A stretch of DNA of 54,883 nt from Candidatus Kaiserbacteria bacterium. GTDB taxonomy: Bacteria > Patescibacteriota > Minisyncoccia > Phycocordibacterales > Phycocordibacteraceae. Position 1 is the first letter of the stretch, and each line of letters starts with the position of its first letter. Shown here one piece after another: positions 47,773 to 53,822 of the stretch. The notes below the pieces were generated by a model. That model did no database searches. It was not told the origin of the DNA and saw nothing but the letters and a program-made list of their open reading frames with translations. Both the position numbers and the translations under genes were made by a program. Where the stretch lies: contig CAWEXP010000007.1 of the NCBI GenBank assembly GCA_963813065.1, forward strand, positions 1-54,883, in the 5' to 3' direction.

Positions 47773-49134
47773 ATGAGTGCCGCTGATCGTGTCCCGCCCC
47801 AGAGTCTCGAATCCGAGCGTGCCTTGCTCGGTGCACTTCTCCTCAAGCCCGACGCCATCCATGACGTCTCGGACCTTATCAAGGCCGATTCTTTTTATGC
47901 AGAAAAACATCGTTTGATTTTCTCGGCGATGCGCGAGCTCGCGGAACGCGGCGAGCCCATCGACCTCCTCACTCTTTCAGAGAGACTCACCGGCCAGGGA
48001 CTGCTTGAGCGCGCGGGTGGCCGGAGTTACTTGGCTGAATTGGCTGCTTCTGCTCCTGCTCCTGGCAACTTCTCTCACTATGCCGATCTCGTCTCGCGCA
48101 AGTTCCTGATGCGTTCGCTCATCGACGCGTCCTACAGCATCACCGAGAGTGCCTACGACGAAGCGCGCGATACGCTCGAAGTGCTCGACACCGCCGAAAA
48201 AGAAATTTATGCCGTCGCGAATAATTCGACCGCACATAAGTTCACCGCCATCGCGGACAAGCTCCACGAAGTCTGGGATCGCATCGAAATGCTGTCGAAG
48301 CAGAAGGATGGCATTCGCGGCGTGCCCTCCGGCTTCCCCGACCTCGACCACCTGCTCTCCGGCTTCCACCCTTCGGACCTCGTCATTCTCGCCGCACGCC
48401 CGTCGGTTGGTAAAACTTCGCTCGCGCTCGATATTGCGCGCAATGCCGCGGTGCGCCACAACGTCCCCGTCGGCATCTTCTCGCTCGAAATGAGTTCCGA
48501 GCAGATTATCGACCGTATGCTCGCGGCCGAATCGTTCGTCAACTCGTGGAAACTGCGCACCGGCCAGGTCAAAGAGGGCGAAGATTTCGATCGCATCCGT
48601 GATGCGCTCGAAGTGCTCTCGAAGGCACCCATCTTTATCGACGACAAGCCAGGTAATAACATTCTCTCGATGCGCGCAGTGGCACGCCGCTTGAAGCGCG
48701 AGAAAGGCGTCGGCCTGATTATCGTCGACTATCTCCAGCTCATGGCGCCGACGAATACGAAAAATTCCGACTCGATGGTCCAGCAAGTCACCGAGATTTC
48801 TCGCTCACTGAAGGGGCTCGCGCGCGAGCTCGAAGTCCCGGTCATCGCGCTCTCCCAGCTCAGCCGCGCCGTCGAGCAGAGAGGCGGCCGCCCGCGCCTC
48901 AGCGACCTGCGCGACTCGGGCTCCATCGAGCAGGATGCCGACGTCGTCATGTTCATCCACCGCGACGACAAGACCAACAAAGAGAGCGAGCGCCCGGGCA
49001 TCGCCGAGATCCTTATCGAGAAACACCGCAACGGCCCGACCGGATCGATCGAACTCTTCTTCGACGAAAAGCGCACGACCTTCCAGCCCGTCGACAAGTC
49101 GGGCTACGGCGAGCTCGCACAAGAATTCGCATGA
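47773..49134 (+). CDS. dnaB: replicative DNA helicase
   Basis: AARPSVGKT, FSLEMS, IVDYLQLM, LSQLSR, SGSIEQDAD. Confidence 0.98.
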   Translation: MSAADRVPPQSLESERALLGALLLKPDAIHDVSDLIKADSFYAEKHRLIFSAMRELAERGEPIDLLTLSERLTGQGLLERAGGRSYLAELAASAPAPGNFSHYADLVSRKFLMRSLIDASYSITESAYDEARDTLEVLDTAEKEIYAVANNSTAHKFTAIADKLHEVWDRIEMLSKQKDGIRGVPSGFPDLDHLLSGFHPSDLVILAARPSVGKTSLALDIARNAAVRHNVPVGIFSLEMSSEQIIDRMLAAESFVNSWKLRTGQVKEGEDFDRIRDALEVLSKAPIFIDDKPGNNILSMRAVARRLKREKGVGLIIVDYLQLMAPTNTKNSDSMVQQVTEISRSLKGLARELEVPVIALSQLSRAVEQRGGRPRLSDLRDSGSIEQDADVVMFIHRDDKTNKESERPGIAEILIEKHRNGPTGSIELFFDEKRTTFQPVDKSGYGELAQEFA

Positions 49135-50387
49135 ACCGCGACACCACAAGCGGATTACTCCGTTTTTTCTGGGCCTTCTGGCTCTTCCTCGCGTTCTACA
49201 AGTTCGCGGCGGCACTCCACTATTCCCTCCTCTCGCCACTCGGCGAGCGCCTTCTGCCGCTCTGGATTGTCGGCCTGCTCATTGGCGGCGAATCATTCTT
49301 CCAGATGCTCTTCGACGTGCCTGCGGGCTATCTCGTCGACCGTTTTGGCCGGCGACGAATGCTCGCAGTGGGTTGGATTTCGTTCGTCATCTCGGCACTG
49401 CTCCTGATGCAATTCTCGCTCGTGCACTATGTCCTCAGTATCGCGTTCTCAGTCGTCGGCTGGCTCTTCTTCGCACCGGGGGCCAACGCGTATGTGCTTT
49501 CCTATGCAAAAAAAGAAACGAGCGGCCGCTTCATCGCACTGCGCGACACTTTTTATTCTGTCGGCGTGGTGCTTGCGAGCATTTCGCTTCCCTTCGTGCT
49601 TCTCTATGCGCCGTTTATCATGGGAGCGATTCTGCTCGTGCTCCTCGCCTTCGCCATCGTTGCGCTCTCTGCAAGTCCGGTCGATGCGCCGGTGGTGCAC
49701 GGCCAGTCCATCCTCCCCGCCGAGCCCTACCACATCCGCCGAACCGCGATTATAAAAACATTCCGCGCGCTCAAGCGGCTTAATCCGGCCAGTGGCACAC
49801 TCGCCGCCTACTCCTTCGCTGGTTCTATTTTCTATGGTGCAATCTGGTTCGTGGTGCCACTCGCTATCGTGAGCCAGCCGGAGAACGGAAGCTTCCTGGG
49901 TGTTGGTCTCGCTATCTTCGACATTTCTGTTGTTGTCTTGGGCGTCGCGCTCGGGACGCTCGTCGATCGCGGCAATAAACGCTTGCTCGTCTTCTGGGGT
50001 CTCCTGCTCTTCGCGCTCATGGGCCTGATACTGGGCGCAACACTGGGGCCGCTCTTCCTCCTCTTCGGCTTCCTCGCGACGGCGGGTGATGAGACCGCCG
50101 GTCTCTCGCTCTGGAGCTGGCTCCACTCGCTCGATAAAGAACATGCGCACGATGGCGCCATTGCGGGCGTTATCTCCTTCTCTGAGGACTTCGGGTACGC
50201 TATCGGCCCGGTCATCGCCGGATTCGCTTTCGTTGCCTTCGGCGCCGGTTGGGCCATCGCTATCTCGGCCATCCCGCTCTGCGTCGCCTGGGTGATGTAC
50301 ACCATCTATATCCGCCCCATCGCCACCTTCCCCACTTCTCTGCTCGGCATCCCGGCAATGCCCCGGCGTCGTCGCCACAAATCATGA
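49131..50387 (+). CDS. MFS transporter
   Basis: About 12 TM helices; motif A GYLVDRFGRR. Confidence 0.88.
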   Translation: MNRDTTSGLLRFFWAFWLFLAFYKFAAALHYSLLSPLGERLLPLWIVGLLIGGESFFQMLFDVPAGYLVDRFGRRRMLAVGWISFVISALLLMQFSLVHYVLSIAFSVVGWLFFAPGANAYVLSYAKKETSGRFIALRDTFYSVGVVLASISLPFVLLYAPFIMGAILLVLLAFAIVALSASPVDAPVVHGQSILPAEPYHIRRTAIIKTFRALKRLNPASGTLAAYSFAGSIFYGAIWFVVPLAIVSQPENGSFLGVGLAIFDISVVVLGVALGTLVDRGNKRLLVFWGLLLFALMGLILGATLGPLFLLFGFLATAGDETAGLSLWSWLHSLDKEHAHDGAIAGVISFSEDFGYAIGPVIAGFAFVAFGAGWAIAISAIPLCVAWVMYTIYIRPIATFPTSLLGIPAMPRRRRHKS

Positions 50388-51025
50388 GTGACCGCATCGA
50401 AGAACTCGCGAGTGCCTTCGCCCGTCTGCCCGGTATCGGACCGCGTCAGGGTAAACGCTTCGTCTATTATCTCCTCGCGACGGGCGCAAGCGAACGTTCG
50501 AAACTCGCCGAACTCATTTCTGCACTGGGAAAAGAAGTGCGCCAGTGCCCGGACTGTTTACGATTCTTCAACGGCTCTTCCGCACTCGTCTGCGGGTATT
50601 GCACCGACAAAACGCGCGACGATGCACAGCTCATGCTCGTCGAGAAGGATCAGGACCTCGCCGCCATTGAACGCGCAGGCACCTATCGCGGTCGCTACTT
50701 TGTGCTCGGCGGCGTTTTGACGCTCTCGGGTAAAGGTGCCATCCGTGAAAAAGAATTGGTACGGCGCGTGGAAAAAGGTTTGAAGGCTAAAACCGCCGCA
50801 GGCGGTTCGCCCGGCGCACAAAGTGCGCTTAGGGAAGTTGTGCTCGCGCTCTCGGCGACGAGCGAGGGCGAACACACCGCCGACCACGTCCGCGAACTCC
50901 TCGCCCCCTTCCGCGACCACTTGAAACTCTCCGCGCTTGGCCGCGGCCTCGCTACCGGAAGCGAGCTCGAATACTCCGACGCCGAGACCCTCCGCGCGGC
51001 GCTTAGCAATCGCAAAGAGGCATAA
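50384..51025 (+). CDS. recR: recombination mediator RecR
   Basis: LPGIGPR, CxxC...CxxC zinc finger, YFVLGG, Toprim EGEHTA, LEYSD. Confidence 0.95.
   Translation: MSDRIEELASAFARLPGIGPRQGKRFVYYLLATGASERSKLAELISALGKEVRQCPDCLRFFNGSSALVCGYCTDKTRDDAQLMLVEKDQDLAAIERAGTYRGRYFVLGGVLTLSGKGAIREKELVRRVEKGLKAKTAAGGSPGAQSALREVVLALSATSEGEHTADHVRELLAPFRDHLKLSALGRGLATGSELEYSDAETLRAALSNRKEA
50787..50817 (+). repeat. family B hairpin element in recR
   Basis: CTAAAACCGCC-GCA-GGCGGTTCGCCCGGCGC; translates as KTAAGGSPGA. Confidence 0.8.
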
Positions 51026-51058
51026 AAGAAAAACCCGGGATAGTCCCGGGCTATGATT

Positions 51059-51349
51059 TCAAACTGGTTTGCGCGGAAGACATTCCTTCTCTTTGACTGA
51101 AAAGATGCCAATACCTCCACCAAGCAATATGATAAGGACTGCTATAGGTGTCCATATCGATTGCTTGAATATCTCGAAGGCACAAGTCATATCGATACTT
51201 ACCAATATGCAAGCCAGTGCGATAGAGAGAACATATACGAACGTGTAGCGGTCAACTGTATTCGCATCCCGTATCCCCCAGATTTGGAGATATCTTCCGG
51301 CCAAGAATGCGACAGTCGCCATGACTGCCAGAATACCGATATTGAGCAT
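51059..51349 (-). CDS. small membrane protein (3 TM)
   Basis: GGGAG RBS; CCCGGGA/TCCCGGG terminator at 51034-51050. Confidence 0.65.
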   Translation of the reverse strand: MLNIGILAVMATVAFLAGRYLQIWGIRDANTVDRYTFVYVLSIALACILVSIDMTCAFEIFKQSIWTPIAVLIILLGGGIGIFSVKEKECLPRKPV

Positions 51350-51453
51350 TGGTTTCTCCCGTTTATGCTCCGAATGTACAGTACACAAACTTATTATAAA
51401 CGTCAAACCGCTCTTCCGAGCGGCTTGTTCAGCGAGGTTTAACCTCGATATTT

Positions 51454-52836
51454 TTAAGCGGAAACAAAGGTGAGTGCCTTGCCCTTCATATCCGCGCGGC
51501 CGGTGCGGCCGATGCGGTGGACATAATCCTCGTAGGTCGAGGGGAGGTCGTAATTGATGACGTGCGAGACGGCCGGGATATCGAGGCCGCGCGCGGCGAC
51601 ATCGGTCGCAACGAGCGCCTGGATCTTGCCGGCCTTGAAGTCCTCGAGAGCGCGGATACGCGCGTTGTGCGACTTGTTGCCGTGGATGCTCTCCGAGTGG
51701 ATATGCATGCGCGAGAGGAGCTTCGCGAGCTTCTCGACGCCGTGCTTGGTGCGACCGAAGATGAGCACGCGATGGAACTCCGGGTTCTTGAGCATTTCAA
51801 CAAGCACGTCGAACTTGTCCTTGCCGCGCGGAATGCGGACAACGTCCTGATCAACGTTTTTCGAGGTGTCGCGGGTCTTGACCGAGATAATCGCGGGCTT
51901 GTTGAGGAAGTCGCCGATGAGTCGCTCGATATCCTTCCCCATCGTGGCGGAGAAGAAGAGGGTGTGACGTTCGCTCCGCATCTTGCCGAGGATGAAGCGC
52001 ATATCGTCGATGAAGCCCATGTCGAGCATGCGGTCTGCCTCGTCGAGCACCACGGTGCTGAAGCCAGAGAGGTCAAGCGCGCCGCGCTCCATGAGGTCCT
52101 TGAGTCGCCCGGGTGTGCCGATGACGAACGAGGGCTTGTGGCGAAGTTGAGAAATCTGCGGCTGGATATTCGCACCACCGACCGCGACCATGCCGCGGAA
52201 GCCGAGTCCGCGCGCAAACTTGGCGAGCTCCTTCTCGATCTGCACGGCGAGCTCACGCGTCGGTGCCATGATGAGCACGCGCTCTTCGTCGATATTCTTG
52301 ATGACTTTGTCGATAAGCGGAATGAGGAAGGCCGCGGTCTTGCCGGTGCCGGTCTCCGCGAGCCCGACGACATCTTCGCCGCGCAGGAGGTGCGGAATCG
52401 CGCGATCCTGAATCGGGGTCGGCGAGACGTACTTGTGCGACGCGATATTTTTCTTGAGTCGCTCGTCGATGTCGAAATCAGCGAAGGTGTGCTCGGGCAC
52501 AAAGTGCTCGACCTTCTCGGTAATCTCGGCCTTGTTTATAAAACGACTGAACTCTGCCTCGGTCTCGCCGAAAGAGCCGAAACCTCGCCCACGACCACCA
52601 CGCGAGCCCCCGAAGGAGCCCCCGCGACTGGGAGCGCGCGAGGGGTAGCCACCGCGCGAGGGGAAACGGCCTGCGACGCGACTGGCTGACCCACTCCGGT
52701 GGGGCCCGAAGGAGCTAGCGGGGCGTTTGCCCTCGCGCGAACTTGAGTTATGAGAAAACGACTCGCCCTGCGAGCCATGCCCGGCAGGAGACGGGCTCCC
52801 GCCTACGCTTTGATGATTCCAACGCCCGTATTGCAT
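51454..52836 (-). CDS. DEAD-box RNA helicase with N-terminal RGG-rich tail
   Basis: Q motif, AETGTGKT, PTRELA, DEAD, SAT, HRIGRTGR. Confidence 0.97.
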   Translation of the reverse strand: MQYGRWNHQSVGGSPSPAGHGSQGESFSHNSSSREGKRPASSFGPHRSGSASRVAGRFPSRGGYPSRAPSRGGSFGGSRGGRGRGFGSFGETEAEFSRFINKAEITEKVEHFVPEHTFADFDIDERLKKNIASHKYVSPTPIQDRAIPHLLRGEDVVGLAETGTGKTAAFLIPLIDKVIKNIDEERVLIMAPTRELAVQIEKELAKFARGLGFRGMVAVGGANIQPQISQLRHKPSFVIGTPGRLKDLMERGALDLSGFSTVVLDEADRMLDMGFIDDMRFILGKMRSERHTLFFSATMGKDIERLIGDFLNKPAIISVKTRDTSKNVDQDVVRIPRGKDKFDVLVEMLKNPEFHRVLIFGRTKHGVEKLAKLLSRMHIHSESIHGNKSHNARIRALEDFKAGKIQALVATDVAARGLDIPAVSHVINYDLPSTYEDYVHRIGRTGRADMKGKALTFVSA

Positions 52837-52843
52837 TTTTGTT

Positions 52844-53194
52844 TTAGTTTATCGAATCGATTCTAATTTTGAGGAAAGGTTGGCGGTGGCCACGGCGCTT
52901 GTAGTAGCGGCTCTTGGCCTTGTATTTGACGACGTCAATTTTCGGCGCCTTGCCCTCGAGGAGGACGGTGCCCTTCACCTCCGCGCCCGCGATCGTGGGG
53001 GCGCCGATAGTCGTGTCGGAACCGTTGTCTACGAGCAGGACTTCGTTAAAGACAACAGTGTCGCCAGGCCTAAACGCCGCAACGGCGTCGGCCGAACCGC
53101 CTTTGGCGGTTTTAGGCAATTTCTCAATGAAAATAGTGTCGCCCTTGCTGACGACATACTGCTTCCCGCCGGTCTTGATAACCGCAATTTCCAT
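52844..53194 (-). CDS. rplU: 50S ribosomal protein L21
   Basis: AVIKTGGKQY, GHRQP; true start at 53194. Confidence 0.96.
   Translation of the reverse strand: MEIAVIKTGGKQYVVSKGDTIFIEKLPKTAKGGSADAVAAFRPGDTVVFNEVLLVDNGSDTTIGAPTIAGAEVKGTVLLEGKAPKIDVVKYKAKSRYYKRRGHRQPFLKIRIDSIN
53085..53115 (-). repeat. family B hairpin element in rplU
   Basis: Minus strand CTAAAACCGCC-AAA-GGCGGTTCGGCCGACGC; translates as KTAKGGSADA. Confidence 0.8.
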
Positions 53195-53235
53195 GTAGAG
53201 ATACACTAGCATTCTCCTATCTAAAGAGCAAGCGC

Positions 53236-53492
53236 TTAACGATAGGCGTCTTTGCGGTGCCTTATGCGATAGATACGCACCTCGTCCTCCACAAGGGTAT
53301 ACAAAATGCGGTATTCTCCAACGCGCAATCGATATCCGGCAACGGCGGTCGTAATTTTCTGATGTTGAGAATTGCGGAAAATGGATTGTGTGCGAATTCG
53401 TCAAGCAATACATTGTCGATTGTGAACCGAACATCTTCCGGCAACTTTTGATATTCTCGATTTGCAATCGAGTTGAGTGTAATGCGAGCCAT
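53236..53492 (-). CDS. RelE/ParE family toxin (frameshift near 53337)
   Basis: IRKLR then, in the shifted frame, GYRLRVGEYRILY...IRHRKDAYR. Confidence 0.85.
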
Positions 53493-53504
53493 CTCAACGA
53501 GATT

Positions 53505-53771
53505 CTACCGCGTGGAGGGCTTGAAGGGATAGAACTTTTTCCCCTTCTGCTCCTTGACGAGCTGTTCAAGCGTCCGCGAGGCTTCTGCGTCCTCCCACAA
53601 TTCGAGCAATTCGTTATAAATATCAGCGTCAAGAACCACGTAGCTGTCACTTCCGCGCCGATCGGCAACCACGAGAGGCGACTTCTTTGCCGCGGCAAGA
53701 TGTCCCGCCAGTCCAGCACGAAACTCGCTCACCCCTATGGTCTTCGGCACTTTGGTCAAAATGGCATTCAT
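53505..53771 (-). CDS. Phd/YefM family antitoxin
   Basis: IGVSEFR...PLVV...YVVLD..Y..L.E..ED; directly upstream of the toxin. Confidence 0.8.
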   Translation of the reverse strand: MNAILTKVPKTIGVSEFRAGLAGHLAAAKKSPLVVADRRGSDSYVVLDADIYNELLELWEDAEASRTLEQLVKEQKGKKFYPFKPSTR

Positions 53772-53822
53772 GCGGCTATTGTACACGTATCTGTACGTTA
53801 TGCAACCATCCTTGTGGATAAT

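Follow-up and report, generated by a model that had tools for sequence, protein, structure and literature searches.

Palindromic repeats that lie in frame within housekeeping genes are known from Rickettsia, where the Rickettsia palindromic element (RPE) is about 150 bp long (Ogata et al. 2000, 2002, as summarized in the review PMC10969869). Hairpins play another part in IS608, whose transposase binds sub-terminal hairpins while the cleavage sites pair with guide bases located 5' of the hairpin foot; this insertion sequence (IS) integrates 3' of a tetranucleotide with neither gain nor loss of DNA, and a change in the left guide alters the target (both PMC3201880). Here we describe a short two-hairpin element that lies in frame in recR and in rplU, the gene for ribosomal protein L21, on a 54,883-nt stretch of DNA from a Candidatus Kaiserbacteria bacterium (contig CAWEXP010000007.1 of assembly GCA_963813065.1; the whole stretch is referred to as the window), and we compare it with these and other systems. 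An earlier note on the window had proposed that the two genes share an insertion in the form of a 31-nt hairpin element. The source genome (G000) comprises 814,325 bases in 10 contigs, with about 56% G+C, and is 92% complete.

The two-hairpin unit and its copies

The two 31-nt segments, at 50787-50817 (+) and 53115-53085 (-), differ at 4 of 31 positions, which agrees with the 27/31 identity that had been reported, and they are indeed read in a common frame, as KTAAGGSPGA in RecR and KTAKGGSADA in L21, both within long open frames. The sequence AACCGCCNNNGGCGGTT, with at most one mismatch, occurs exactly twice in the window against an expectation of 0.03, and none of 100 dinucleotide shuffles reached two occurrences. 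The repeat is thus real, but the 31 nt represent only the 5' two-thirds of a 48-nt unit with two hairpins. Alignment of the four perfect copies of the stem motif in G000 revealed a second hairpin, variable in sequence and length yet paired, followed by a conserved end, YTAGG, and a covariance model was built from these four copies. The unit has a fixed layout, in which a G-N dinucleotide is followed by CTAAA, hairpin 1 (6-10 bp), a linker TCG-N'-CCG, hairpin 2 (5-11 bp), YTAG and a second, terminal G-N. Measured from CTAAA through the terminal G-N, copies are 45-66 nt long, with hairpin 1 starting 5 nt from the 5' end and hairpin 2 stopping 4-6 nt from the 3' end.

The recR copy (48 nt, 50787-50834, + strand; covariance model 77.3 bits, E 1.2e-18) is composed of CTAAA (50787-50791), hairpin 1 (50792-50806), the linker TCGCCCG (50807-50813), hairpin 2 (50814-50828), TTAG (50829-50832) and the terminal GG (50833-50834), all on the + strand, and reads in translation as (A)KTAAGGSPGAQSALR. 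Immediately 5' of it lies a GG (50785-50786, +) that flank-linker covariation marks as the presumed target dinucleotide, the second G being complementary to linker base 4, a C. The host gene (50384-51025, +; 213 aa) has Pfam matches to Toprim_4, RecR_HhH and RecR_C, and the element occupies a loop of the Toprim domain at about residues 199-219, within the Toprim_4 match (148-239, both in open-frame numbering).

On the opposite strand, the rplU copy (48 nt, 53115-53068, -; 73.3 bits) is composed of CTAAA (53115-53111), hairpin 1 (53110-53096), the linker TCGGCCG (53095-53089), hairpin 2 (53088-53074), TTAG (53073-53070) and a terminal GC (53069-53068), and reads as KTAKGGSADAVAAFR(P). A presumed target dinucleotide GC precedes it (53116-53117, -), its C being complementary to the linker G. 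If a copy is described by the triple of the base before CTAAA, linker base 4 and the last base, this is a symmetric (C,G,C) variant that satisfies the architecture on both strands, and the opposite strand also matches the covariance model (27.6 bits). The host gene (52844-53194, -; L21 of 116 aa, Pfam Ribosomal_L21p) carries the element in the loop between IEKL and GDTV. Pfam confirms both hosts, and the claim that a repeat had entered a ribosomal protein and a Toprim loop stands. In an AlphaFold model of L21 with a mean predicted local distance difference test score (pLDDT) of 84.7, the insert lies between two strands and residues 31-35 score below 50, so that in the model it is a low-confidence loop.

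Comparison with orthologs shows that the copies arose by insertion. L21 matches were found in 40 of the 41 genomes compared (G000 and 40 relatives), and the 348-nt gene of G000 exceeds all other full-length matches (303-327 nt), in keeping with the unusual length noticed before. The insert is absent from 28/28 aligned L21 orthologs of relatives, an alignment that leaves out one partial match and the matches listed without a locus. In G000 the sequence reads TTG C/CT AAA ... TTT AGG C/CT GGC GAC, the slashes marking the ends of a 48-nt insertion within the Pro codon of L-P-G-D. The gene also lacks 15 nt (L-K-K-G-D) found between two G-D repeats in relatives, hence a net gain of 33 nt. Five relatives carry an unrelated 5-residue insertion in the same L21 loop, which indicates that the loop tolerates changes in length. 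At the RecR site, most of 27 aligned relatives have K-N-G-L-K-E and a shorter loop, whereas G000 reads AAG G/CT AAA ... CTT AGG G/AA, with 12 nt missing between two L-K repeats. Gaps thus appear in both alignments, and together with the many further copies they bear out the claim of a genuine insertion family. Among the RecR loops of relatives, four (G023, G001, G007 and G011) have a different insertion of about 6 residues (SDGHSVSIKL-like), and those of G015 (GQTALK) and G010 (PAEGG) resemble parts of the element peptide and, judged by this resemblance, may be decayed copies. Contigs from four DNA runs were searched over 50384-53200, and a 252-nt contig from run X2 reads across the recR copy.

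Other genes tell the same story. GatC copies lie at different positions in G000 and G024, the G024 gatC site being an exact +51 nt relative to G000 at ACG A/AG, and TopA copies likewise differ in position between G000 and G017. Among 22 same-genus orthologs of YqeY, only those of G000 and G024 have a copy, which there replaces an 8-residue loop, and in the YqeY of a third genome (L222) a copy sits cleanly beside that loop. Decayed copies are seen in G017 dnaX and G024 yqeY.

Within G000 the covariance model finds 20 places, 18 of them with E<=1.8e-4, and a census by motif plus hairpin brings the total to at least 23 copies, further ones being present in related genomes. Sixteen or 17 of the 23 lie within real genes, including recR, rplU, gatC, topA, uvrD, dnaX, pheS, nusA and smc. 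Pfam confirms as hosts RecR, GatC, L21, an NAD-dependent epimerase, topoisomerase I, YqeY, a UvrD-type helicase, DnaX, a DNA_pol3_delta2 protein, an SMC_N protein, a PrgI-family protein, PheS, NusA, a PIF1-type helicase and a type IV pilin-like protein. Almost every coding copy has a length divisible by 3 and no stop codon, adding 16-20 residues, and by their reading frames genic copies are read through as an extra protein loop. The frame bias, which the earlier note had suggested tabulating, is strong without being absolute: 12 copies are in sense in the frame 'AK...FR', 3 in sense in the frame 'LK...LG', 1 (PIF1) in sense in a mixed frame and 1 (NusA) in antisense, and the other 6 are intergenic, terminal or unassigned, one copy without an assigned host abutting the 5' end of a tRNA gene.

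The pilin copy (C8:55999-56053) makes up most of the leader peptide (MKLKQLRSNCSPERAEARFRG/FTLIE), with the start codon 4 nt upstream, an apparent recruitment of the element as N-terminal coding sequence. The copy in the PIF1-type helicase (C6:34378-34432) is 55 nt long and so not divisible by 3, yet the PIF1 and HTH_40 domains on its two sides share one frame, and hence there must be a compensating indel nearby; the peptide switches between element frames. Elsewhere some genes hold two copies in the same frame, as in L121, a public metagenome-assembled contig, where they are 111 nt apart, and in L134, within one 750-aa open reading frame (ORF).

The occurrence of the element is patchy across distant lineages, and G000 is unusually rich in it. 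Of 24 other species of the genus, five (G013, G024, G017, G009 and G014) match the covariance model below E 1e-9, and 16 genomes from other families of the order gave no match better than E 2.8e-4. An exact pattern (GGCTAAA, gap, TCGCCCGRC, gap, YTAGGG) was found in at least 115 stretches of one-genome-per-species contigs. Eighty rows among the matches listed correspond, by hand count, to 62 assemblies, 52 named as Patescibacteria and 10 only as 'bacterium', with no other phylum name among them; the lineages named are Saccharibacteria, Paceibacterota, Parcubacteria, Nomura-, Kaiser-, Zambryskii-, Lloyd- and Vogelbacteria and Minisyncoccia. A few exact matches lack hairpins and look like chance, such as L223 in a gene for a PapD-type chaperone. 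Even so, the element is rare: an even draw of 200 other genomes from the phylum gave no match to this same exact pattern, which G000 matches 12 times, and no stretch of a viral contig collection matched it. A variant-linker pattern, searched in 400 evenly drawn phylum genomes, gave besides rplU only hairpin-less chance matches, at about the level of a reversed-pattern control.

Boundary bases and a candidate route of mobilization

A direct G-N repeat flanks the unit in 128/130 readings. Of these 130, which are a biased set because most copies were found with a pattern that fixes the triple, 123 show (G,C,G). A further search was made in 151 genomes of the same genus for units with a linker base other than C and with unconstrained flanks. 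Among six copies with linker T, five are (A,T,A) and one is (G,T,G), a wobble; four loci with linker G are all (C,G,C); and the single copy with linker A, in G017, is (G,A,G), a mismatch. Nine of the 11 variant copies thus have a linker base N' complementary to both boundary bases, a correlation with one wobble and one mismatch set against it. In terms of pairing, 5'-G-N-C matches linker G-N'-C and 3'-G-G-N matches linker N'-C-C, two overlapping and mutually exclusive arrangements. Given that clean insertions add just one G-N, the other must have pre-existed in the target, and it follows that an internal base of the element correlates with its integration site.

The element is, in our judgment, probably a non-autonomous IS200/IS605-type single-strand transposon, targeted by a guide base and moved in trans by a Y1 HUH enzyme. 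It would consist of a left-end and a right-end hairpin with no gene between them and would move by 'peel-and-paste' single-strand DNA transposition, integrating 3' of a G-N dinucleotide chosen by pairing with the guide base of the linker. The same guide would also recognise the element's own 3' G-N. Eight RAYT/IS200-like genes (RAYT, REP-associated tyrosine transposase; REP, repetitive extragenic palindrome) are candidates for the enzyme that would act in trans. Selection would then retain only intergenic copies and those lying in frame in tolerant surface loops, and small compensating deletions beside the insert might sometimes follow.

The candidate genes are eight PF01797 (Y1_Tnp) matches of 214-279 aa in G000 with HUH (LMPNHFHLL-like) and Tyr (YIHxNP-like) motifs. 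They are located at C5:2624-3337, at C6:112761-113435 and, on C10, at 49106-49813, 111876-112520, 132445-133116, 143626-144465, 151852-152529 and 166377-167054. Most are flanked on both sides by a hairpin of their own, in a REPtron-like arrangement, and some of these hairpins are scattered through the genome. Across G000 and its 40 relatives, 29 of the 41 genomes have Y1 genes, up to 10 per genome. One REP-like single hairpin, CGAGGTT..AACCTCG, flanks both sides of the RAYT-like Y1 gene of C6 (C6:112755 and 113449) and occurs 12 times in G000; its positions include two in the window, at about 22101 and at 51433-51447, the latter just downstream of the ORF at 51454-52836. It may correspond to the 'Family A' of the earlier note.

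Several observations weigh against this proposal. The complementarity rule is broken by the dnaX copy (G,C,A), by the pilin copy (5' AG), by the G017 copy (G,A,G) and at one end of the copy at C10:53582. A longer outer stem would serve equally well to explain the (C,G,C) variant, and the (A,T,A) copies may belong to one sub-lineage and hence would not amount to five independent tests. An IS200-type insertion could not be told apart from a 2-bp target-site duplication, and the clean +51 nt in G024 gatC is compatible with both a 2-bp duplication and none. With respect to the enzyme, no Y1 gene adjoins any copy, the nearest being 3.1 kb away; the hairpins flanking Y1 genes differ in sequence from the element; and Y1 counts do not follow element counts, G001 having 10 Y1 matches and no element. 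We found no autonomous form, with half-sites bracketing a gene, in G000, and the four DNA runs contained no empty-site or circle-junction reads for the recR and rplU copies. A composite form was considered in G475, where two symmetric copies lie 2.3 kb apart, and was rejected: at least the second lies inside an ordinary ORF (a Mur ligase by eye), and no transposase-like ORF was seen by eye in the stretch inspected, which stopped short of the first copy. As to a strand bias linked to replication, the G-rich strand carries 10 of the 23 copies in G000, whose GC skew is flat and noisy.

The flanking repeats can also be viewed as those of a classical cut-and-paste MITE (miniature inverted-repeat transposable element), with CTAAA/TTTAG as a 5-bp terminal inverted repeat, G-N as a 2-bp target duplication, a DDE transposase and hairpins that are incidental, which we consider unlikely. 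The ends of the element do form an inverted repeat, the direct repeat is nearly constant, and net clean insertions amount to the element plus 2 nt, all as such a model predicts. However, G000 has no match to DDE_Tnp_1 (PF01609) or DDE_3 (PF13358), nor to TnpB, a negative qualified by the 92% completeness of the assembly, from which a transposase could be missing. The only IS-like repeat in G000 (C8:66104-67169 and C9:42260-43325; 1066 bp, 100% identical), which encodes a 326-aa rve-like protein below the Pfam cut-off, has ends unrelated to the element. Moreover, duplication alone leaves both the flank-linker complementarity and the two covarying internal stems unexplained.

Apart from these genes, G000 contains one reverse transcriptase (RVT_1, E 8e-28, C10:30047-30661, in a 300-aa open frame) and two tyrosine recombinases, with nothing tying them to the element. 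Beside rplU lie two small adjacent ORFs (53262-53492 and 53505-53786, -) that, judged by eye, resemble a toxin-antitoxin pair, with a Phd/YefM-like N-terminus in the upstream ORF.

Hairpin covariation and coding frames

Both hairpins are maintained by paired changes. In 31 distinct copies aligned to the model, 99.5% of the cells of hairpin 1 and 98.0% of those of hairpin 2 are paired, and 10 of the 12 hairpin pairs show changes on both sides. Cells with a double change number 78 against 17.2 in shuffles, none of 500 shuffles being as high, and sliding the partner by 1-3 columns lowers the pairing to 24-47%. This alignment having been fitted to the model, 117 exact-motif matches were examined as a check free of such fitting, with no pairing imposed, and 95 of them have at least five consecutive pairs from the foot in both hairpins. 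Arms taken from different copies form on average 1.2 pairs in hairpin 1 and 2.3 in hairpin 2, compared with 6.9 and 7.7 within the same copy, the latter means coming from a hairpin-filtered set. An outer helix formed by CTAAA and TTTAG was considered and is not counted as supported, since it shows no covariation and one of its positions is unpaired in 11 of the 31 copies.

Where diverged genomes have a copy at one and the same codon, the stems have stayed perfect while bases on both sides changed, some of the changes being non-synonymous. Such groups comprise four hosts at an LAPFAPH..W motif, which we take to be leucyl-tRNA synthetase, as well as ArgS and YqeY. Selection for folded DNA, re-insertion at favoured sites or template-switch correction of quasi-palindromes could each account for them. 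The first of these leads to the idea that the element is a host-maintained DNA structure, comparable to a domesticated REP, in which folded DNA is useful as a protein-binding, replication or repair site and the spread is ancient. The same-codon copies speak for it, and so do the mismatches in the internal stems (10 G.T, 16 A.C and 9 other), which fit a DNA-level constraint on both strands. Nevertheless, the closest relatives are usually without a copy at a given site, which looks like recurrent insertion or loss and not like conserved function; decayed copies exist, as noted for dnaX and yqeY; and the strict pattern is missing from the 200 evenly drawn phylum genomes. Template switching at quasi-palindromes can, in addition, restore perfect palindromes without selection. 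We hold host maintenance to be rather improbable.

The strong covariation of two helices and the conserved single-stranded junctions, together with the sense orientation of 57 of the 79 ORF-assigned copies, would also be expected of a functional RNA motif, a cis-acting three-way junction, for instance one that binds a protein or directs processing, regulating the host transcripts. Several results make this distinctly improbable. G.T mismatches in the stems are not commoner than A.C mismatches, which means that there is no RNA-type tolerance of wobble pairs, and the outer helix that would close such a junction is the one without covariation. Real genes also carry copies in antisense: Pfam recognizes 14 of the 22 antisense hosts, L223 probably by chance, and among the 14 are BipA, RecR, DnaE (twice), PheS, L19, deformylase, TsaD, MraZ and a Mur ligase. 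An Rfam 15 scan of 18 element loci at E<=1 found no family at the elements and, elsewhere, only tRNAs and two weak unrelated matches. It is the mismatch pattern, the antisense copies and the lack of positional conservation among close relatives that lead us to disfavour an mRNA motif.

In the wider set, the length is divisible by 3 in 89 of 129 copies, and 86 of the 117 exact matches listed fall in a frame-keeping length class. No ORF of at least 100 aa runs through 38 of these 117. The other 79 were assigned to the longest ORF, a rule that may err in GC-rich DNA, with 50 in the sense frame 'AK', 7 in the sense frame 'LK', and 14 and 8 in two open antisense frames. If every stop-free site were equally likely, the expected shares, calculated from how GG and CC dinucleotides fall in the codon phases of 637 long G000 ORFs, would be about 32, 14, 31 and 24%, respectively. 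The excess of sense 'AK' (63% versus about 32%) calls for a further cause, and this could be tolerance of the peptide or a strand preference of insertion. A shared peptide motif (AKTAxGGSPD..FR) or a chance resemblance, suggested by the similar peptides that most coding copies encode in one frame, is hardly credible, since other frames (pheS, the pilin leader), antisense positions (nusA and others) and intergenic sites also hold this DNA unit, its stems covary at the nucleotide level with non-synonymous paired changes, and by chance the core motif would be expected 0.03 times in the window.

Comparison with described systems

The literature searched, supplementary files apart and a motif search included, yielded no description of such an element in the Patescibacteria, or candidate phyla radiation (CPR). 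As a tentative further step, which we rate somewhat below an even chance, the element could be the smallest known guide-bearing mobile DNA, a 48-nt gene-less single-strand transposon in which one linker base sets, through Watson-Crick pairing, both the target dinucleotide and its own 3' cleavage site, moved by one of the RAYT-like Y1 enzymes and adapted to ORFs. If so, sub-families with C, G or T in the linker would land at GG, GC or GA, respectively, and the length classes and stop-free frames would reflect adaptation to the ORFs of minimal genomes in which intergenic space is scarce, those for ribosomal and replication proteins included. The complementarity between flank and linker leads to a hypothesis open to bench testing, namely a minimal, programmable signal for single-strand integration, and the element suggests a possible substrate for the many RAYT-like Y1 genes of CPR genomes. 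Until now, in-frame selfish DNA in essential genes was a peculiarity of Rickettsia; a far smaller and apparently unrelated element in CPR bacteria shows it to be a recurrent outcome in gene-dense, reduced genomes. The CPR genes affected include those for L21, S10, L19, RecR, TopA, DnaE, DnaX and several tRNA synthetases, and the element accounts for some of the odd loop insertions of CPR proteins, which can mislead alignments, phylogenies and structure predictions.

Like RPE as reviewed, the element is a palindromic selfish repeat of a reduced genome that lies in frame in unrelated housekeeping genes and also between genes, and both are translated into extra peptide segments compatible with protein function, a point that is read here from open frames in Pfam-confirmed genes. 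The two differ in size (about 150 bp against 45-66 nt) and in phylum, and the present unit has two short hairpins with conserved single-stranded junctions and a complementarity between flank and linker, the latter not mentioned in the reviewed account of RPE. Size, phylum and architecture set it apart from the RPE descriptions, and it is not a member of RPE.

With the REP/REPIN-RAYT systems, as far as PMC6006769, PMC8266576 and PMC3733652 describe them, it shares short, GC-rich, dispersed palindromes and the presence of RAYT-like Y1 genes with hairpins of their own. A REP in these descriptions, however, is a single extragenic palindrome of 20-40 nt with a GTAG or CGTC tag that adjoins a RAYT gene, whereas the present element has two hairpins and CTAAA/TCGCCCG/YTAGG motifs, is mostly intragenic (16-17/23) and lies at least 3.1 kb from any Y1 gene. 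MITEs such as ERIC and Correia, in the review's account (PMC10969869), are similarly small and non-autonomous, with inverted ends and short direct repeats, and occasionally lie in frame within genes. The element is much shorter than these, no parent IS with matching ends is found in G000, and it has covarying internal hairpins and a flanking base tied to an internal one. It thus fails the defining features of both REP/RAYT and DDE-type MITEs.

The IS200/IS605 family offers parallels in its integration logic, as seen in the account of IS608 (PMC3201880). A sub-terminal hairpin lies near each end, long terminal inverted repeats are lacking, integration takes place beside a specific short sequence, the boundary sequences find complementary bases 5' of the hairpin foot, and Y1 HUH genes are present in the genome. 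The hairpin sequences here nevertheless vary freely among copies, and no transposase gene with these ends was found. IS608 itself has two 4-nt guides and two cleavage tetranucleotides, 19 and 10 nt from the hairpins, according to that account, whereas in the present unit one 7-nt linker seems to serve both ends through just 2-3 pairing bases. By analogy, the element looks like a minimal, gene-less version of an IS608-like transposon in which the two ends would share one guide.

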